Below, one piece after another: positions 4,278 to 57,128 of a stretch of DNA of 64,000 bases (its first letter is position 1; every line of letters begins with the position of its first letter). The stretch lies in contig OZ006985.1 in NCBI GenBank assembly GCA_963931165.1, positions 1,365,643 to 1,429,642 of the forward strand. Direction: 5' to 3'. The DNA comes from an uncultured Christensenellaceae bacterium. Lineage in GTDB: Bacteria > Bacillota > Clostridia > Christensenellales > UBA3700. The notes beneath the pieces are model-generated. The model saw only the letters and a program-made list of their open reading frames with translations. It ran no database searches and was not told where the DNA came from. Made by a program: the position numbers and the translations under genes.

Positions 4278-4766
4278 ATGAAAGGCAAGGACATCGGAAA
4301 TGCGGTCGACACCTATGTCGATCTTATGGACATGGTGAAAGACGAAAATGTTTACGGCATAGTCGATGACGACGGCTGCCGGGATTGCATACTCAGGCTG
4401 CCCGACTACATAGGCGGGGACAAGGAGGAGCAAGAGGTCTCGCTCGACGTGCTGTTCGATCGGGGCGACAAAATGACGATCGAATGGACGGACGAAAACG
4501 GCAAGGCAAGGTCGTTTGCGCAGCTAGCGACCATAGTCCTCGAAAGGGACGGGAGAGCAAAATTCTGCGTCGTGGCGGCTCCGCTCGGCAAGACCGACGG
4601 CGCGGGCAAAGATGACTTGACCGTGTTTTCGATCGCCAAGAACGAACAGGGAAGATTCACCCTCAAAAGGGAAGAAGACGAAGAGGCGTCAAGAGCGGTT
4701 TTGGACAAATACCGCCAAATGACGGAAGAGGCGAACAAAAAATCCTCATTAAAAAGTCAAAGATAA
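4278..4766 (+). CDS. DUF1292 family protein (paralogue)
   Basis: GGAGGGAGG RBS. FAQLATIVLERDGRAKFCVVAAPLG...DDLTVFSI follows the same pattern as the upstream gene. Confidence 0.65.
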   Translation: MKGKDIGNAVDTYVDLMDMVKDENVYGIVDDDGCRDCILRLPDYIGGDKEEQEVSLDVLFDRGDKMTIEWTDENGKARSFAQLATIVLERDGRAKFCVVAAPLGKTDGAGKDDLTVFSIAKNEQGRFTLKREEDEEASRAVLDKYRQMTEEANKKSSLKSQR

Positions 4767-4838
4767 AACTCTGTTTAAGCGGATAAAACGACGACAATCG
4801 TCGCGCGAAACCGCGCTTCTCGCGCGACTTGATAAGCA

Positions 4839-4938
4839 GTCCCCGAATGACCGCGTTCTTCGGGGACTGCCCCTTACGGGACCGTGAGCGGTGAGCGAGC
4901 GCTTGTCCCGTGGGAAGGGGAGTATTGAGGGGAAAACC
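4839..4938 (+). ncRNA. candidate structured RNA element, copy A
   Basis: Hairpin GTCCCCGAA/TTCGGGGAC with loop TGACCGCGTTC; second stem ACGGGAC/GTCCCGT; G-rich tail GGGAAGGGGAGTATTGAGGGG. Paralogous to 5118-5217. Strand inferred from G.U pairs. Confidence 0.4.
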
Positions 4939-5117
4939 GAAAACAGCAAGTATGAGGAACGGACGTAATTGCTTTTGCAATCACGTCCGTTGCGATTCGT
5001 AGCGTTGTTTTCGGGTTGCCGAGAATCCGCATTCAAAAGAAAAGAACAAAACTTGCATAACGCGAATAAATTTACGACTCCATCTCGCCCAACCGCGTTT
5101 GGGCGAGATACGGTAAC

Positions 5118-5217
5118 GCCCTCGTCGAATGACCGCGCTCTTCGACGAGGGCACTTTGCGCGGTCGCGAATGGTGAATGAGCGCGCCGCGTGGGAGGGGG
5201 AGTATTGAGGGGGAACC
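5118..5217 (+). ncRNA. candidate structured RNA element, copy B
   Basis: Hairpin GCCCTCGTCGAA/TTCGACGAGGGC with loop TGACCGCGCTC; second stem GCGCGG/CCGCGT; tail GGGAGGGGGAGTATTGAGGGGG. Stems differ from copy A but stay complementary. Confidence 0.4.
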
Positions 5218-5233
5218 ATTTCGCCGCTTATAT

Positions 5234-5273
5234 GAAAATACCGCCTGCAAGCGATTTGCTTGCAAGCGGTATT
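5234..5273 (-). terminator. groEL terminator (inner hairpin of a longer 5205-5307 stem-loop)
   Basis: Minus strand AATACCGCTTGCAAGC-AAATC-GCTTGCAGGCGGTATT followed by TTCAT. Flanked by outer arms TTGAGGGGG..CTTAT / ATAAG..CCCCCTCAA. Confidence 0.6.
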
Positions 5274-5324
5274 GATTTGAGCGATAAGCGAAATGGTGCC
5301 CCCTCAAAGAGCGGAGCGGAGCGC

Positions 5325-6959
<1,635 letters not shown>

Positions 6960-8022: not shown

Positions 8023-11000
8023 ATGTCCGAAGAAAAGAACGTGATCTTTGTCAAAGAGGGTGCGCTCGAGCTGACATTGGAGTGCGCCGACACGATCGGC
8101 TACTACGCGCTTCAAAACGGCATCAGGCTCATCAAGCGTTTCTATCTCAAAAACACTTCCGAAAACGACATCGAGGACATCCGCATCAAGGTGACCTCAA
8201 AGCCCGACTTCATCGTGCCGTACGAGTTCGTGCAGCAGGTGATACCGCGCCGCACGACCGCGAGGTTCAACCTCGACGTCAATTGTTCGCCGACCTGCCT
8301 CGTCTCGATGGACGAGCGCACCGAGGGCGACCTTGACGTCGAGATCTTTGTCGGCGAGCAGTCGGTGATGACCGCAAGCGTCAAGACGGACATCCTCGCC
8401 TTTGACGAGTGCGACTTTGCCGCTTCGCCCGAATCGCTCGCCGCGTTCGTCAAGCGCACCGCCGAGGTCAACAAGACGGTCGCCGACGCCGAACAGCGCG
8501 CCCGCGATTGGAAGCTGACGATCTCCAAGGGCTACGGTTCGCGCAACGGTGTGCGCAACTATTTCGCCGCATGTTACAGCGTGATCGCCGAGGAGAAGTT
8601 CGTGCTTGAAGATACCCCCGGCGACGACTTCAAGGTGGTCTCGCACAAGGAGCTGTTCGAGTCGGGCATCGCGACGGGCCCCGAGCTTGCGCTGTTCATG
8701 GCTTCACTCGCCGAGAGCGAGGGACACAACGCGGTCGTCGGCAAGTTCGGCGGCAAGTGGTACGCAGGCGTATTCCTCACCGACGAGTGTTGTCCGTCCA
8801 CGGTATGGGACGACGCCGATTTTCTTGCGAAAAAGACATCTTCGGGGGTCAACGACTTCACGCTCATCTGCATGGACGACATCTCCGAAGGTTCGTCGTT
8901 CGAGAAGGCGGAACGCAACGCCAAAAACGCATTGAAGCGCGCCGACGACGGCGTGTTCATCGACGTCAAGCGCGCGCGTATCATCAACATCAAGCCGCTC
9001 CCCGAGCGCAAGCGCAGACAGGGCGGCGGATACGACCTCGAAGAGAGCCGCGATTTTGCGCCCGAATTGCGTCCGTCGCAGATACGCGAGTTCAAGGGCG
9101 CGGTCGAAGGGGACAAGGAGACGGGCAAGATCGCGCAATGGGAGCGCAAGCTGCTCGACATGGACATGCGCAACGCGCTGCTCAACTTCAAGATCTCGCG
9201 CGCGGCGGTCAAATTGCTGACGCCGTCGCTGCAAAATCTGTTTTCCGCGCTCGACCGCAACAAGACTTTCACCGTCGAGGCGGGAGCGAAAGAGGCGGAA
9301 AAGGCGGGCATAGAGCTTGCCAAGGACTTCGCCCACATCGGCTACACCAAGCCTTTCACCGACTTTGTCGGGTATGAATATTCCAACAAGCGCATGCTGT
9401 CCGTCTACGACTCCAAGGAGCACGAGGGGACGCTGTTCCGTCTCTTCCGCAAGGAGAGCAGCGTGCAGGAGGAGACGGGCACTACGTCGCTCTATCTCGC
9501 CGCCGGCTTCTTGCGCTGGAAGGAGGAGGGCGCGACCGAGTTCAAGTATGCGCCCCTCTTCCTCTTCCCGGTGAGCATGACGCGCAAGGGGCTTGCCGCG
9601 CCGACCTATACGGCGGAGGTCAACACCGACGACGTCAGGCTCAACTCCACGCTTTTGGAGTTTTTGTACCGCCAATTCAACCTCGACATCAGGGGGTTGG
9701 GGACGGTCGCTTTGAGCGGCGAGCAGAGTTATATGTCCGTGATCGCGCGCATCAAGCGCGAGACGGTGGACATGAAGGGCTGGGAGGTGTTCGGCGACGC
9801 GTTTTTGGCGAGTCTGTCGTTCGCCAACTATCAGCTTTGGTACGACATCAAATACCGCACCGAGAAATTCCGCGAACATCCGATCGTACGCTCGCTGCTC
9901 GACAACAGGCTCGAACTGCCCGAGGGCGCGTTCGACCTGTCCGACCGCAGCAGCGACGAGGCATATGTCGGGACGGAGAGGATGTATCTGCCGATATCGG
10001 CGGACTCGTCGCAATATTCGGCGATCTATGACAGTTTGAGCAAGAGCTTTGTGCTGCACGGACCTCCGGGCACCGGCAAATCGCAGACGATCACCAACAT
10101 CATCGCCAACAACATCGTCCGCGGTCGCCGCGTGCTGTTCGTCGCCGAAAAGAAGGCGGCGCTGTCCGTCGTTCACCGCAGGCTCAAATCGATAGGGCTT
10201 GCCGATTTCTGCCTCGAATTGCACTCGGGCAAGACAAACAAGACCGCGGTGCTCGGGCAGATCGTCAACACGCTCGGTCTCAAGTCGGGGACGACCGATG
10301 TCGACATCAACGAAAAACTCGACGAGATCAAGGAGAGCGTCGACGCGCTGTCGGGCGAACTCGAAGCGATGCACCGCAAGCGCTATCTCGGCATCTCGCT
10401 CTATGAGGGCATCCTCGAATATTTCGAGAATCAGGACGCGCCCGACTGTTTGAGGATAGACTCGCTGTTCTATGAAAAATTGACGGCGGAGTCCTTCCGC
10501 GGCTATTTGCAGATCCTCGGCGAACTGTCCGTGCGCGCCAAGGAGTGCGGCGACATCCAAAAGACGCCGTTCAAGCGCATCGGCGGCTTCGAATACGACG
10601 ACAAGTGGCGTGCGAGCGGCGAGCCGATACTCGAGATCGCGCTCGACCAATTGCGCAATCTGCGGGCGTGTGCGCGCAATCTTTTGCCCTATTACAGCGT
10701 GCGCACGGTGTCGCTGACCGATCAAAAGCTCAAGGCGCTGTACAAGCTGTCCAAGGGGCTGGAAAAGGAGTATGCGGCGCACTATTTCGCGCTCAAAGAC
10801 GGGGGTAAAAAGGACCTCGTCGACAACTATCTCAACCTCAGCAACAAGGCGGCGATGATGATGACCGACTACCGCTCGCGGTACGGCGCGTATCCGGCGG
10901 AAGTGCCGCAGGACGACCTCGCCGAGGCGGCTGAGGGCAAGAGCCCGTCGCGCAAATTGCGCAAGATCATGCCCGACGGCGTCGCAAAGGAGCAGAGGCA

Positions 11001-29689: not shown

Positions 29690-29718
29690 TTGCAAACTTT
29701 TCTCGGATGAGTTATAAT
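29690..29718 (+). promoter_or_regulatory. sigma-A promoter giving a leaderless transcript of the metallophosphoesterase gene
   Basis: -35 TTGCAA (29690-29695), 17 nt, -10 TATAAT (29713-29718), 6 nt, ATG 29725. No SD. Confidence 0.6.
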
Positions 29719-29724
29719 TGTGCC

Positions 29725-30417
29725 ATGAAAGTTTTTGCGATCAGCGACCTGCATCTCGACAGCACCCTGTCAAAGCCGATGGACATTTTCGGCCCCGGCT
29801 GGGAAGGGCATTGGGACAAGATACGCGACGATTGGCGCTCCAAGGTGGGCGCCGACGACGTCGTCTTGCTTGCCGGCGATCTCTCGTGGGCAATGTCGCT
29901 GGACGAGGCTTTGCCCGACATCGCCGAGGTGGGGGAGCTGCCCGGTGTCAAGTTTATCTTGCGAGGCAACCACGACTATTGGTGGAGCGCGATCGGCAAG
30001 GTCAGACAGTCGTTGCCCGAAGGGATGCATGCCGTTCAAAACGACTGCATACGCTGCGGCAAGCTGCTTGTCTGCGGCAGCCGCCTTTGGACGATCGGCT
30101 CTTCGGCGGAAGAGGACGTCAAGATCGCCGAAAGGGAGTTTTTGCGCCTAACGCTCAGTCTCGACGCGATGCGCAAGATGAGGGAAGAGGGCGACAAAGT
30201 GGTCGTGATGACCCACTATCCGCCGTTCGACGCGACATTTGCGGACAATCGCTTTACAGACTTGATCGCTACTTATGCGCCCGACGCGGTCGTGTACGGG
30301 CATCTGCACGGCAAAGACGCACGCGCGCGCCTCGTCGTAGACAAAAGGGGGATACCTTACTACCTGACTTCGTGCGATCTTGTCGGCAACAAATTGGTGG
30401 ACATACTCGAGGTTTGA
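29725..30417 (+). CDS. metallophosphoesterase (calcineurin-like)
   Basis: MKVFAISDLHLD, LLAGDLSWA, RGNHDYWW, GHLHG motifs. Start set at ATG 29725. Confidence 0.85.
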   Translation: MKVFAISDLHLDSTLSKPMDIFGPGWEGHWDKIRDDWRSKVGADDVVLLAGDLSWAMSLDEALPDIAEVGELPGVKFILRGNHDYWWSAIGKVRQSLPEGMHAVQNDCIRCGKLLVCGSRLWTIGSSAEEDVKIAEREFLRLTLSLDAMRKMREEGDKVVVMTHYPPFDATFADNRFTDLIATYAPDAVVYGHLHGKDARARLVVDKRGIPYYLTSCDLVGNKLVDILEV

Positions 30418-30450
30418 CGGCGTATATTATCGAAAAAATACAAACTGTCG

Positions 30451-30479
30451 CGGAGCGCGGATGCGCTCCGTTTTGTTTT
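30451..30479 (+). terminator. terminator after the metallophosphoesterase gene
   Basis: CGGAGCGC-GGAT-GCGCTCCG followed by TTTTGTTTT. Confidence 0.8.
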
Positions 30480-30900
30480 AACGGTCTTCGATCGCGCACG
30501 GCAGGGACGGCGTACCTCGGCAAACGCCGGCGGCTTCATGAGGTCGCTTTTGTGTTCGAGATTTTTTCAAAGTATGCACATATGCGCAGGGAAGACTATC
30601 CCCGGCAGAAGGGCAGGCTGCCGGACCACGAACGTTTGAGGGCGCGGACGGGTGCTTTTATATGTACGGGCGCTGTTCGCGCGAACGGAATGAGCGCACC
30701 GGGCAGGGACAGCTTTCCCCGGGGTGGAGCAGAGGCGGCTGCGGCGGGTGTGTTTTGATGCAGTTTCGTGCGCAAAACAGGGAAGAGGTCGCGCGCTTGG
30801 GCGTTTGTTGTCCGCCGAGCGGCAAAAAGAGGGAATATTTGATGACCATAAGGCATATACGAGCCGGCTGAACGCGAAATTTCAAAAAATATAGGGAGAG

Positions 30901-52638: not shown

Positions 52639-52714
52639 CGGGGTGTGGCGCAGTTGGTAGCGCGCGTGGTTTGGGACCATGAGGCCGGGAGTTCGAGTCT
52701 CTTCACCCCGACCA
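52639..52714 (+). tRNA. tRNA-Pro (TGG)
   Basis: Cloverleaf with acceptor CGGGGTG/CACCCCG, anticodon loop TTTGGGA, T-loop GTTCGAGTC. CCA encoded. Confidence 0.9.
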
Positions 52715-52729
52715 ATGCAATAAAATTGT

Positions 52730-52806
52730 GGGCCATTAGCTCAGTTGGTTAGAGCAACCGGCTCATAACCGGTCGGTCCAAGGTTCGAGTCCTTGATGGC
52801 CCACCA
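52730..52806 (+). tRNA. tRNA with CAT anticodon (elongator Met or lysidine-type Ile2)
   Basis: Acceptor GGGCCAT/ATGGCCC, anticodon loop CTCATAA. There is no initiator signature (1-72 paired, no GGG/CCC anticodon stem). C4-C5 in the acceptor stem hints at Ile2. CCA encoded. Confidence 0.85.
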
Positions 52807-52821
52807 CAAACAAGATAATAT

Positions 52822-52898
52822 GGTTCGGTAGTTCAGCTGGTTAGAACGCTAGCCTGTCACGCTAGAGGTCGAGGGTTCGAGTCCCTTCCGAATCGCCA
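52822..52898 (+). tRNA. tRNA-Asp (GTC)
   Basis: Acceptor GGTTCGG/CCGAATC, anticodon loop CTGTCAC. CCA encoded. Confidence 0.9.
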
Positions 52899-52940
52899 AA
52901 ATATCTTATGAGTGGTAGCGATATCACTCATAAAAAATAT

Positions 52941-53016
52941 GCCTCGGTAGCTCAGTCGGTAGAGCAGGGGACTGAAAATCCCCGTGTCGGTGGTTCGATT
53001 CCGCCCCGAGGCACCA
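52941..53016 (+). tRNA. tRNA-Phe (GAA)
   Basis: Acceptor GCCTCGG/CCGAGGC, anticodon loop CTGAAAA. CCA encoded. Confidence 0.9.
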
Positions 53017-53036
53017 AAGCGAAAGATCGCGATCGG

Positions 53037-53112
53037 GCTGGTGTAGCTCAACTGGCAGAGCAGCTGATTTGTAATCAGCAGGTTGCTGGTTCGATTCCGG
53101 TCACCAGCTCCA
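53037..53112 (+). tRNA. tRNA-Thr (TGT)
   Basis: Acceptor GCTGGTG/CACCAGC, anticodon stem-loop GCTGA-TTTGTAA-TCAGC. CCA encoded. Confidence 0.9.
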
Positions 53113-53116
53113 ACAA

Positions 53117-53201
53117 GGGAAGGTTCCCGAGCGGCCAAAGGGAGCAGACTGTAAATCTGCCGACCATGTCTTCGGTGGTTCGAATCCACCCCTTCCCACC
53201 A
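53117..53201 (+). tRNA. tRNA-Tyr (GTA), long variable arm
   Basis: Acceptor GGGAAGG/CCTTCCC, anticodon loop CTGTAAA, variable arm CGACCATGTCTTCGGTG. CCA encoded. Confidence 0.9.
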
Positions 53202-53667: not shown

Positions 53668-54879
53668 ATGGAAAACGATCAGTCCTTTCAAAACGGACAG
53701 GGCGTGACGACAGGGCAGCAGGCTCCGCAATTTGTGCAGCCGGCACAACAGCCGATGCAACAGCCGCAATTTGCGCCGCAGCAGCCTGCCCAACCGGCAC
53801 AACAGCCGACGCCGCAACCTGTCTATCAGCAGCCCGTCTATCAACAGCCGGCGCAGCAAGTTCAGCCTGTCTATCAGCAGCCCGTGCAACAACCGGTGCA
53901 GCAGCAATATGCGCAGCCGCCTCAACCGGTCGCACAGTCGCCGCGTCTTGTCAACGGCAAGAATTGCGCCTATTGCGGCACACTCAATGTGGCGGATGCG
54001 GTCTATTGCTACAATTGCGGCAACTACATCGACCCGGCGTATGCGGCGAGGACGTGCCAGACGTGCCATACGCTCAACGCTCCGGGTGTCGCCTATTGCG
54101 TAAAATGCGGTTCGACGCTTGCGGCGGGACGTCAGGCGATGCCGGCGCAGCAGGGCGCGGTCATGGGCTACAACCCCGCAGAGACGCCCGACACCTACGA
54201 GTCGTCCTATGACGGCGGCGCGGTGTCCAACTTCTTGCACTTGCTCGTGGTGATCTTGTTTTCGTCGCTTACATTGTTTTTGGCGATGCCGGCGCTCGTG
54301 TGCTGGTATTTCCGTTGGGAGACGTCGCACGTCAGGATCAACGGCAGACAGCTTGAATTTGACGGCAAGGGCATACAGCTTTTCGGCAAATTGGTGTTGT
54401 GGTCGTTTTTGACGCTCATCACGATCGGGCTCTACGGCATCTTCAGAATGCCGCTCAACCTGCAGCGCTGGCGCACGAGCCATACCCACGTTGCCGGTTA
54501 CAGGACCCCGGACGGCAACAAGGGCGAATCCAAGTTTGACGGCAGCATCTTCGGACTTTGGGGCGTCAATATCGTCAGAGTTCTTTGCTTGCCTTTGTCG
54601 GTCATCACGCTTGGCTTCATGGGCTCCGTGTCGAAGAGATACAGATACGCATGGTTTGCAAAGCGCAAGATCTACGACGGTCAGACTATGAAGTTCGACG
54701 GCACCAGCGGTCAGTTGTGGGGTAAGAGGATAGTATGGCTTTTGCTCACGATCATCACGATCGGCATCTACACCGCATGGATGATGAACAACGTCAAGAA
54801 GTGGAGATACAAACACACTAAGTTCACTGCGCCCGGAATGTTTCCGGCGCCCGCGATACAGCAGCCTCTCGGCAAATAA
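53668..54879 (+). CDS. Q/P-rich, double zinc-ribbon, DUF898 (YjgN-like) membrane protein
   Basis: GTGGGAG RBS favours ATG 53668 over 53662. QQPVYQQP repeats; CAYCG..CYNCG and CQTCH..CVKCG ribbons; two repeats of a TM pair with FDG..G.LFG/LWG typical of DUF898. Confidence 0.7.
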   Translation: MENDQSFQNGQGVTTGQQAPQFVQPAQQPMQQPQFAPQQPAQPAQQPTPQPVYQQPVYQQPAQQVQPVYQQPVQQPVQQQYAQPPQPVAQSPRLVNGKNCAYCGTLNVADAVYCYNCGNYIDPAYAARTCQTCHTLNAPGVAYCVKCGSTLAAGRQAMPAQQGAVMGYNPAETPDTYESSYDGGAVSNFLHLLVVILFSSLTLFLAMPALVCWYFRWETSHVRINGRQLEFDGKGIQLFGKLVLWSFLTLITIGLYGIFRMPLNLQRWRTSHTHVAGYRTPDGNKGESKFDGSIFGLWGVNIVRVLCLPLSVITLGFMGSVSKRYRYAWFAKRKIYDGQTMKFDGTSGQLWGKRIVWLLLTIITIGIYTAWMMNNVKKWRYKHTKFTAPGMFPAPAIQQPLGK

Positions 54880-56291: not shown

Positions 56292-56301
56292 AACAAAATT
56301 T

Positions 56302-56626
56302 GCAAGCGCAGTCTGTAAGCCGGGTTCTGTCGAGGATAAACATCTATCTGAGCCAAGCGTTGCCGCAGGGCTTAAGCGATTGAGGGACGCGGCAGGCGAC
56401 CGATCCGTCCTTGTCTCTTGCATCGAGTGGGGTTTACAGGGCCTCCCGCGTTGCCGCAGGAGCGGTGAGCTCTTACCTCGCCTTTCCATCCTTACCCTTG
56501 CGGGCGGTTTATTTCTGTTGCACTTTCCTTGGAGTCGCCTCCACCGGTAACTAGCCGGCACTCTGCCTTATGATGCCCGGACTTTCCTCCGTAGTCTTTC
56601 ATACGGCGTTTATCCGACTGCCTTGC
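56302..56626 (-). ncRNA. rnpB: RNase P RNA (type A-like)
   Basis: Minus strand carries GAGGAAAGTCCGGGC (P4 5' strand), GGTAAGAGCTCACC, GTAAACCCCAC and ACAGAACCCGGCTTA (P4 3' strand). P1 pairs GCAAGGCAGTC with GACTGCGCTTGC; P2 pairs GGATAAAC with GTTTATCC. Confidence 0.9.
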
Positions 56627-56632
56627 GAAAGA

Positions 56633-56661
56633 ATTATAACACACTTCCATAGTTCTTGCAA
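56633..56661 (-). promoter_or_regulatory. rnpB sigma-A promoter
   Basis: Minus strand: -35 TTGCAA (56661-56656), 17 nt, -10 TATAAT (56638-56633), 6 nt, then GCAAGGCAG (RNA 5' end). Confidence 0.75.
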
Positions 56662-56705
56662 GTCTTTGTTTTGAAAGTGGCTTGGTCTTAAAAATTTTAT
56701 TGGAA

Positions 56706-56829
56706 CGCACTCGCTGTAACTGCTCGTGCGACAAACGAGTCGCCTCCACCGGTAACTAGCCGGCACTCTGCCTTATGATGCCCGGACTTTCCTCTATGAA
56801 TAATCATAGCGTTTATCCAACTGCCTTGC
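56706..56829 (-). pseudogene. truncated RNase P RNA paralogue (P1-P5 5' portion only)
   Basis: GCAAGGCAGTTGGATAAACGC (56829-56809), its own P3-like hairpin CTATGA-TTAT-TCATAG, then 58 nt identical to rnpB (56794-56737 = 56589-56532). After that it diverges into GCGAC-TCGTTT-GTCGC and the CGCAC..GTGCG element. Confidence 0.7.
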
Positions 56830-56864: not shown

Positions 56865-57024
56865 TCTTTTTCGCACAACGAACAAACAATCGAAGTTCCG
56901 TTGTCAGTTCGCTGTTTGGTTACTGCTCGCGTTTTACGTTTTGGGATTCCACGGCGGCGCACTCGCTGTAACTGCTCGTGCGATTGAGTGCTTGGTTACA
57001 TCTGAAAAACTTGTTTGCCGATCG

Positions 57025-57094
57025 GCGTTTATCCAACTGCCTTGCGAGAGGATCATTGCATACTTCCATAGTTCTTGCAAGTCTTTGTTTTGAA
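57025..57094 (-). repeat. third copy of the rnpB promoter/5'-leader module (degenerate -10)
   Basis: 57094-57062 repeats 56675-56643 (includes -35 TTGCAA at 57080-57075). The -10 is AATGAT (57057-57052), followed by 6 nt and GCAAGGCAGTTGGATAAACGC (57045-57025). The sequence then becomes unrelated. Confidence 0.6.
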
Positions 57095-57128
57095 TGTAGT
57101 GCTTGCGTTTTTACCTCGGCTTATTTTC

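Follow-up and report, generated by a model that had tools for sequence, protein, structure and literature searches.

A dispersed family of mosaic intergenic elements with a selected fold at convergent gene ends in uncultured Christensenellaceae

The convergent gap between a DUF1292-like gene and groEL of an uncultured Christensenellaceae bacterium contains two adjacent copies of one structured element. The gap lies in a 64-kb stretch of contig OZ006985.1 (assembly GCA_963931165.1, positions 1,365,643 to 1,429,642 of the forward strand), which is called the window below and whose coordinates are counted from its first letter. We found that the element belongs to a dispersed family and that its fold is under selection on the + strand. 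Very probably the family is real and non-coding, with a structure selected on the + strand, and it has so far not been catalogued. The reading that we prefer, with a probability of roughly 45%, is that the element is a transcribed, selected and mosaic intergenic RNA repeat that would act in cis at convergent gene ends as a 3' end, a terminator and an insulator.

Results

The element and its family

The unit is composed, on the + strand, of an AT-rich leader, the hairpins P0, P1 and P2, a G-rich linker (the tail) and a module of about 100 nt called P3, in this order, and its total length is about 250-330 nt. A covariance model of the core, R1, identified window positions 4800-4932 and 5082-5212 as two copies of this element, A and B, with E-values of 1e-40 and 1e-37 and a spacing of 282 nt, and found just these two copies in the window. 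An initial annotation of this DNA had described two stretches, 4839-4938 and 5118-5217, that share blocks in the same order, and had taken the element to be about 100 nt long. The two stretches align with 83% identity and the order is kept; the conserved cores were thus confirmed, but the full unit is considerably longer.

The details of that description agree with our scans. The shared G-rich tail, the 16-nt GGGGAGTATTGAGGGG, is found exactly at 4917 and 5197 and nowhere else in the 64 kb, and when up to three mismatches were allowed, none of 100 shuffles reached two or more matches. The conserved loop of the first hairpin with its flanks, GAATGACCGCGYTCTTCG, is exact at 4845 and 5127 and at just these two places in the window. 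The stems of this hairpin are unlike each other and nevertheless complementary, as had been stated: in both copies the inverted-repeat scan gave 12 bp at 100% around an 11-nt loop (arms 4836-4847/4859-4870 and 5118-5129/5141-5152). The closing stem of the second hairpin is ACGGGAC/GTCCCGT in copy A and GCGCGGT/GCCGCGT, including one G.T pair, in copy B, by both sequence and fold. A composite stem-loop follows each copy (4931-5020 and 5205-5307, inverted-repeat scan); the latter has 20-nt arms that are 95% complementary and an inner hairpin of 16 bp. Its tail, CCCCCTCAA at 5299-5307, lies 18 nt from the groEL stop codon (5325-5327), and the inner hairpin scores as a minus-strand terminator, so that the groEL terminator is enclosed in the composite structure. 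All structural statements that had been made on 4839-5307 were therefore borne out. The folding energies of the two units correspond to z = -7.8 and -9.5 against shuffled sequence.

The gap had also been called free of open reading frames (ORFs). Mechanical ORFs of 156, 169, 79 and 105 aa do cross it, for example that of 156 aa at 4749-5219 on the minus strand, but the three that were scanned have no Pfam match, and the codon log-odds of the gap ORFs are negative, unlike those of the flanking genes, which are clearly positive. A coding role was rejected on these two grounds and because the peptide changes with each stem allele. A type I toxin-antitoxin repeat was rejected likewise, since the ORFs of the unit change with the stem allele, score negatively as coding sequence and match nothing in Pfam. 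The ATG after the tail was also rejected as a start codon; it stands, by eye, about 19 nt from the nearest run resembling a Shine-Dalgarno sequence.

An exact tail scan over one genome per species gave 13 loci in four Christensenellaceae metagenome-assembled genomes (MAGs), most of which have several copies: five contigs of Candidatus Ornithoclostridium faecigallinarum, one of Ca. O. excrementipullorum, and six and two loci in two bins named uncultured Christensenellaceae. Seven further exact tail loci in unrelated taxa are without the rest of the element and were taken as chance. A scan of metagenomes added about 27 strong copies from a few assemblies. Among all fetched loci (designated by L and a number), R1 found 43 copies with scores of at least 108 bits, of which 38 are distinct; the copy number is at least 11 in one assembly and at least 12 in another. 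The hosts are Candidatus Ornithoclostridium, a genus placed in the family Christensenellaceae of the order Christensenellales, and related uncultured Christensenellaceae of the chicken gut. In syntenic relatives reached through the DUF1292 protein, the same gap measures 486-852 nt and contains related sequence assembled differently. One candidate did not hold: the weaker relative that had been suggested at 30683-30710 scores 8.5 bits with R1 when the filters are off, covers the inner P2 segment only and lies within a 346-aa ORF (29718-30758), and it was rejected as chance.

The initial annotation had recognised no known RNA family here, and no Rfam family matches. With Rfam 15 at the gathering score, nothing overlaps the element in the whole window and 10 related loci; at E-values up to 10 on 4700-5400, only weak look-alikes of microRNAs, SECIS elements and small RNAs (sRNAs) were listed, the best with 24.9 bits against a gathering score of 70. 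Collections of viral contigs, phages and plasmids gave no match to the element. In the literature we found no account of an intergenic repeat at convergent genes that combines a bidirectional terminator with covariation, and on the genus Ornithoclostridium we found taxonomy and metagenome papers only.

Selection on the fold and its strand

The fold was evaluated with a core alignment fitted to the model (A3, 38 distinct rows) and a P3 alignment (A4, 24 rows). Standard pairs occupy 97.8% of the paired cells in A3, versus 37-54% when the partners are slid by 1-3 columns, and 98.3% versus 36-68% in A4. Both sides have changed in 23 of the 41 core pairs (260 cells) and in 9 of the 20 P3 pairs (70 cells); the arms may swap as whole modules, so these counts are not all independent substitutions, but every retained allele is complementary. 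The observed covariation score was reached by none of 500 shuffles, for the core as well as for P3. An independent MAFFT alignment of 15 copies again gave 23 of 41 compensated core pairs. Helix 1 (P0) is 98% paired with double changes in 6 of 11 pairs, and helix 2 (P1) has double changes in 9 of 14. The foot of P3, which is the helix joining the tail to sequence beside the neighbouring stop codon, is compensated at two positions (TTTAGGGG/CCCCTAAA twice and TTGAGAGGG/CCCTCTCAA once). The stems occur as 9 alleles in P0, 17 in P1 and 14 in P2, and the loops and the tail are nearly invariant. The initial annotation had seen a selected fold and not a decaying duplication in the window pair. The 43 copies and these compensatory changes support that view, and the further homologues and the covariation on which it had made its proposal depend were both found.

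When the alignments are read on the + strand, G.U occupies 93 cells and A.C 13, in agreement with the earlier remark that the wobble pairs make sense on this strand. Fold stability also favours the + strand over its complement, for 32 of 38 cores and 23 of 28 P3 hairpins. In several helices, including helix 3 of P3, the variable pairs switch only between Watson-Crick and G.U on the + strand. The wobble asymmetry and the strand stability indicate that the folded molecule is the + strand, as RNA or, formally, as single-stranded DNA. These results show that the fold is under selection on the + strand.

Anatomy of the unit

The leader has three interchangeable types, and the motif ATCC(G/T)CATTnAAAAGTCAAAG is common to the DUF1292 end in the window and to other copies. 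Copy A has a type-a leader, ATCCTCATTAAAAAGTCAAAGATAAAACTCTGTTTAAGCGGATAAAACGACGACAATC (4742-4799; this and all features of the unit below are on the + strand), and the same leader stands ahead of the core in L015, L042, L047, L058 and L050. Its beginning in the last DUF1292 codons was absent from the initial annotation, and so was hairpin P0 with its ACCGCG loop. P0 has a 9-bp stem and the loop AACCGCGYUU, and is followed by the linker YGRUAA. It lies at 4800-4828 in copy A (loop AACCGCGCTTC; R1 and alignments A2/A3) and at 5082-5109 in copy B (stem ATCTCGCCC/GGGCGAGAT, loop AACCGCGTT; inverted-repeat scan and alignments). P1 has a stem of 12-14 bp and the loop UGACCGCGCUC. In copy A it occupies 4836-4870 with 12 bp and the loop TGACCGCGTTC (inverted-repeat scan), and in copy B 5118-5152 with the stem GCCCTCGTCGAA/TTCGACGAGGGC and the loop TGACCGCGCTC (inverted-repeat scan and covariation). 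The loops of P0 and P1 are alike, RACCGCGYUY, and the stems vary between copies.

P2 is closed by CCUU pairing with RRGG of the tail, and continues with a 7-bp outer stem, a CGY/RCG step and tandem G.A; the apical 2-bp stem under the GGUGA loop covaries between GC/GC and AU/AU. In copy A (4871-4918, helices 3-5) the closing pairs are CCUU:AAGG, and the inner part consists of CGY, tandem GA and GC-GGUGA-GC below which the outer stem given above stands; in copy B (5153-5198, alignments) the inner part reads GAAT-GGTGA-AT-GAGCG. The G-rich linker follows at 4917-4932 and, by the tail scan, at 5197-5212. Its last 8 nt are the 5' strand of the P3 foot, as a comparison of tail variants indicates. 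Since the full fold pairs the tail with CCUU and with the P3 foot, the tail is mostly paired and not single-stranded; its unpaired part is GGAGUA only.

The foot of P3 pairs UUGAGGGG with CCCCUCAA. Above it, the middle stem exists in at least three compensating versions (alpha, beta and gamma), and then come a short helix, AUGAR:UUYR, and a variable GC hairpin. The apex consists of an A-tract, the GC hairpin and a U-tract, and the flanks GTATGAAAA and TTTGATTC are kept in all P3 types. P3 as a whole is a near-perfect palindrome of about 100 nt with an extended helix of about 45 bp. The P3 of copy A (4925-5024, alpha type) matches R2, the model of P3, with 58.8 bits and was also found by the inverted-repeat scan; the tandem junction GCCGAGAATCCGCATT stands in place of the 3' arm of its foot. 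The junction and the leader of copy B, GAGAATCCGCATTCAAAAG..., follow at 5020-5081, and an identical junction occurs in other tandem arrays. The P3 of copy B (5205-5308, beta type) matches with 90.6 bits, and has the foot TTGAGGGGG/CCCCCTCAA and the middle stem 5214-5224/5288-5298, which the P3 covariation supports. Its apex, with a 16-bp GC hairpin between A-tract and U-tract, is at 5237-5273 (inverted-repeat and terminator scans).

All units finish with ...CCCCTCAA(A) on the 3' side, and they differ in their 5' ends. R2 found about 55 P3 modules, of which about 15 are orphans without a core, often right upstream of a complete unit, and it scores P3 in the + orientation about twice as high as in reverse. 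L028 is without P0 and the core of L021 is heavily remodelled.

Some further variants and candidates were noted. At L062 (about 9050-9076) and L070 (about 10676-10702) the tail variant GGGGAGTACCCCGGG is able to form GGGG-AGUA-CCCC instead of the UAUUGAGGGG foot strand. An alternative 5' module of about 230 nt takes the place of P0-P1 at L005 (4170-4400) and also at L008, L011, L026 and L046. It has a GTACC-TCAA-TGGTAC hairpin, a compensating flanking stem (GTCCGC/GCGGAC versus GACGC/GCGAGC) and the end GCGGAACAGAAAA, and appears to be a further structured module of the same mosaic system. Two partners for the ACCGCG loop were considered and rejected: the P2 5' arm GCGCGGT, which is complementary in some alleles only and is thus not general, and CGCGGU of the 530 loop of 16S rRNA, for which the match is a 6-mer only and not significant.

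Position at convergent gene ends

Genes were called with a codon log-odds model trained on the long ORFs of the window, which reproduces the deposited calls for the window region. In the window, the upstream co-oriented gene is the DUF1292-like gene (162 aa, 4278-4766, + strand; ORF list and coding score), and the downstream gene is the convergent groEL (5325-6947, - strand; Cpn60_TCP1 match), whose stop codon is 17 nt past the end of P3. In 36 arrays in total, the downstream gene is convergent in 27 of the 30 with a called gene on that side; a called upstream gene likewise exists for 30 arrays, and 23 of these genes are co-oriented. The convergent gene typically begins 57-105 nt from the end of the core, or 0-25 nt past P3, and in about nine of ten arrays P3 lies 0-25 nt behind the convergent stop codon. 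At L016 the TGA stop of the convergent gene lies within the terminal TTTGAGGGG, and the 3' flanks suggest likewise in several other copies. Three arrays have a co-oriented downstream gene, and in two of these, L048 and L023, the element is followed by a promoter-like TTGNNN-17-TATAAT; so it is in L021 and L061, which the gene caller scored as convergent.

By Pfam, the downstream neighbours include a threonyl-tRNA synthetase, a PurF-like amidotransferase, a DnaC/DnaI-like loader, SIS, MatE and DUF815 proteins, besides groEL in the window; others we take, from reading the sequences, to be IlvN-, EF-Tu- and AlaRS-like. As judged from these assignments, the array neighbours are ordinary housekeeping genes without a common pathway.

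The terminator scan gave a minus-strand match at 5255-5240, followed by ATTTTCATAT, at the apex of copy B. Because this apex scores as a minus-strand terminator, it is assigned as the groEL terminator. With its hairpin, its A- and U-tracts and the nearby stop codon, by which such a terminator is defined, the P3 apex looks like a bidirectional intrinsic terminator.

The leader of copy A overlaps the DUF1292 stop codon, and no terminator is predicted between them. The DUF1292 ORF of the window is 162 aa long, 6 codons longer than its relatives, which have 156-157 aa and end before 4742-4766, and the leader of the element supplies its final codons (about 4742-4766, ...KKSSLKSQR*). The leader-encoded end and the shorter relatives indicate that the repeat rewrote the 3' end of the gene. 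The promoter scan of the window gap predicted no sigma-70-type promoter on either strand, although the scans are ambiguous elsewhere. Since the leader starts in the DUF1292 ORF and neither a terminator nor a promoter is predicted, both copies are most simply a 3' extension of the DUF1292 transcript. The label of sRNA, in the sense of a stand-alone gene, which the initial annotation had given to the element as a candidate, thus finds no support in the window copies.

In type-b leaders, hexamers resembling a promoter (TTGACT/TTAACT, 18-19 nt, TATAAT/TATGAT) can be seen by eye on the minus strand and were not called by the scan. They occur at L011 (4515-4560), L046 (about 560-600), L053, L069 and L070 (10485-10530), are directed away from the core into the previous P3, and by their sequence may give rise to a short antisense RNA.

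Mosaicism

At the groEL site, the window, L005, L008, L011, L015 and L058 have differing module combinations though their GroEL proteins are at least 98.5% identical, and all relatives examined have an element there, even one whose GroEL is only 93% identical. The junctions recur at the short shared strings GGAGTATTG, GAATCCGCAT and GCGGAACAGAAA. These observations show that modules are exchanged between copies. One orthologous gap was found filled in one species and empty in two others: L016 holds the element in about 640 nt (2222-2865), whereas L036 (3234-3349) and L062 (12411-12526) have 115 nt with a plain A-tract/hairpin/U-tract terminator. No target-site duplication was seen in this pair, in which the entire spacer differs, and at the filled site the TTT-TGA stop of the neighbour supplies the last bases of the P3 foot. 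The pattern looks like long residence with frequent recombination or gene conversion, more than recent transposition.

Other observations in the window

The RNase P RNA gene is at 56299-56625 on the minus strand and is the single one that Rfam finds in the window. A 58-nt stretch in its 5' part recurs exactly (56532-56589 and 56737-56794, 205 nt apart), and a 75-nt stretch over its 5' end recurs with 89% identity (56604-56678 and 57023-57097, 419 nt apart); part of the region may have been duplicated, or the repeats may be an artefact of the assembly. Six tRNA genes are clustered at 52639-53198 on the + strand. A short tandem repeat at 53800-53907, with units of about 15 and 33 nt (CAGCCTGTCTATCAGCAGCCCGT...), probably lies inside a coding sequence and would encode a Q/P/V/Y-rich stretch.

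Discussion

As we picture its action, the element would be transcribed either from its own weak promoter or as a 3' extension of the upstream co-oriented gene, as for the pair behind DUF1292 here. The P3 apex would terminate transcription of the oncoming gene (groEL here) and, less efficiently, that of the element's own strand. Together with the long helix of P3, the three hairpins on the 5' side may form a nuclease-resistant, insulating 3' end, and the invariant ACCGCG loops and the G-rich linker may be recognition sites for a putative common factor. The copies would be spread and homogenised via recombination at the short junctions.

Several points weigh against this reading. Transcription of the element is deduced from its sequence, and no promoter is predicted in the window gap. 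The single stand-alone locus scanned, L029, has promoter-like hexamers on both strands. In other leaders, inspection by eye suggests boxes resembling -10 on the + strand and, on the minus strand, a possible -35/-10 pair. The U-tract of the apex is weaker on the + strand, especially in alpha-type P3, and the selected pairing of the P3 foot would need transcription through the apex. The strand asymmetry fits a single-stranded DNA intermediate equally well. In addition, two hairpins with identical loops and a near-invariant 16-nt linker are superfluous for termination or stability in cis, and they therefore indicate a specific partner.

Alternatively, the copies may be a family of stand-alone, trans-acting sibling sRNAs, each transcribed from its own promoter in the leader and terminated by P3. 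The G-rich linker and the invariant loops (ACCGCGCU, twice) would then be seeds or sites that titrate a protein or an RNA. The unpaired sequence is indeed invariant while the stems vary, there are many copies per genome, -10-like boxes (TAATAT, TATAAT) stand just ahead of the leader in some stand-alone copies (L011 about 4530, L029 and L028), and at L029 the scan scores TTGAAA-17-TAATAT on the strand of the element. However, neither window copy has a predicted promoter, the tandem junctions are without promoter-like boxes, and the full fold leaves little of the tail unpaired. The tail and P3 also persist without the core or P0, as in L028 and the orphan P3 modules, the strict siting at convergent stop codons is unexpected for sRNAs, and the modules are shuffled at orthologous sites; we consider sibling sRNAs rather unlikely. 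The same grade is given to a non-autonomous mobile DNA element, whose hairpins would be read as single-stranded DNA by an HUH/Y1 transposase in the way of repetitive extragenic palindromes (REPs) and their associated tyrosine transposases (RAYTs) or of IS200/IS605 derivatives such as PATE and omega-RNA, or which would resemble a miniature inverted-repeat transposable element (MITE). It would then be the DNA whose fold is selected, with termination as a by-product. A family that is dispersed, multi-copy and intergenic only, with modules as mosaic as in bacterial interspersed mosaic elements (BIMEs), agrees with this, and so do the palindromic P3 and a strand asymmetry like that of a transposition top strand; the unit end ...TCAA(A), supplied in L016 by the TTT-TGA stop, hints at a target preference. 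But no transposase-like gene, be it Y1/HUH or TnpB, was found by Pfam among the immediate neighbours scanned, no array has an ORF inside the unit, and the phage, plasmid and viral collections are without a match. The stems diverge strongly within one genome, unlike those of recently amplified MITEs, the inverted repeat sits within the 3' module instead of flanking the unit, the single filled-versus-empty comparison lacks a target-site duplication, and the groEL site is filled in all relatives examined. A MITE in the strict sense was rejected, as there are no terminal inverted repeats at both ends (P3 is internal and the leaders are of three alternative types) and no target-site duplication in that comparison.

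The structured domain followed by a terminator hairpin, with a downstream gene that is almost always convergent, also recalls a riboswitch- or attenuator-like sensor, in which the core would decide between stopping at the P3 apex and running antisense into the convergent gene. Antisense RNAs controlled by riboswitches are known, namely that of the S-box downstream of ubiG-mccBA in Clostridium acetobutylicum and AspocR of Listeria, and the linker has two possible partners, CCUU (helix 3) and the distal CCCCUCAA. These two pairings, however, use different nucleotides and are compatible rather than exclusive, the core is absent or heavily remodelled in L028 and L021, riboswitch classes do not show such mosaic shuffling or modules so nearly identical, and the neighbours share no pathway; a sensor is hence improbable. 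A riboswitch or other cis-regulatory 5' leader was rejected by its position, the downstream gene being convergent in nearly all arrays. A new class of regulatory RNA that exerts a genome-wide antisense control embedded in the terminator is similarly improbable: here a ligand or protein on the loops and linker of the three-hairpin domain would set the + strand passage of P3, and read-through would yield antisense RNA into housekeeping genes such as groEL, thrS, purF and ilvN. Less probable still is a functional RNA on the minus strand, a C-rich RNA derived from the 3' untranslated region of groEL and other genes (CCCCUCAAUACUCCCC, in the style of RoxS/RsaE) through terminator read-through. In favour of it are the terminator of P3, which is better on the minus strand, the richness in C of the sequence complementary to the tail, and a small minus-strand terminator-like hairpin after P0 in type-a leaders (4804-4791). 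On that strand, though, the wobble pairs turn about 6% of the pair cells into C.A mismatches, the variable pairs switch between Watson-Crick and G.U only on the + strand, and most cores are more stable as +; the minus strand was rejected on this asymmetry. Chance likeness or a neutral, decaying local duplication would suit the adjacency of the two window copies, but the family has copies at unrelated loci in several species with strong compensation and near-invariant loops and tail, so that this explanation is refuted by the family searches and the covariation and its probability is next to nil.

The preferred cis-acting repeat can be compared with several known systems. REP units are palindromes of about 35-40 nt with a conserved GTAG in enterobacteria and pseudomonads, and REPs and BIMEs form hairpins in transcripts, where they act as terminators and 3' stabilisers. 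They and the element are alike dispersed, intergenic and mosaic, placed at gene 3' ends or in convergent gaps, and rich in hairpins. Unlike a REP, the element has 250-330 nt, four distinct hairpins, invariant 11-nt loops and a G-rich linker, its sequence is unrelated, and no RAYT-type transposase is among the immediate neighbours scanned. The pneumococcal BOX (of boxA-B-C style) and bcr1 of Bacillus cereus are transcribed repeats with predicted stable RNA structures and, like the element, modular or structured multi-copy intergenic repeats of Firmicutes. The element differs from both in its built-in bidirectional terminator, its near-obligate convergent-stop site and a far stronger contrast between loops and stems, and their sequences are unrelated. 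Ordinary bidirectional intrinsic terminators share with the P3 apex a GC hairpin between an A-tract and a U-tract, placed within a few nucleotides of the stop codon, whereas the terminator of the element lies inside a conserved covarying helix of about 45 bp and is joined to a three-hairpin domain that is repeated genome-wide. Sibling sRNAs such as Qrr, LhrC and the csRNAs share with the element paralogous copies, conserved unpaired motifs and variable stems, but not its tandem copies without promoters between them, its fixed convergent-end site and its module exchange. In our comparison, the element would resemble REP/BIME and BOX repeats most in its working, yet it lacks their defining sequence and size features. 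We classify it as a dispersed structured intergenic repeat, or multi-copy non-coding RNA.

In conclusion, the element is an uncatalogued structured RNA family from an uncultured gut lineage, and its covariation merits an Rfam entry. It is unusual in carrying one invariant loop on two hairpins with free stems, in its near-invariant linker, in a terminator set into a long selected helix, and in its siting at convergent stops. If the conserved loops bind a specific factor, the family would represent a new RNA-protein or RNA-RNA system in Christensenellaceae. If it is only a repeat, it still shows how intergenic repeats can supply terminators and reshape gene ends, as in the last codons of the DUF1292 gene.

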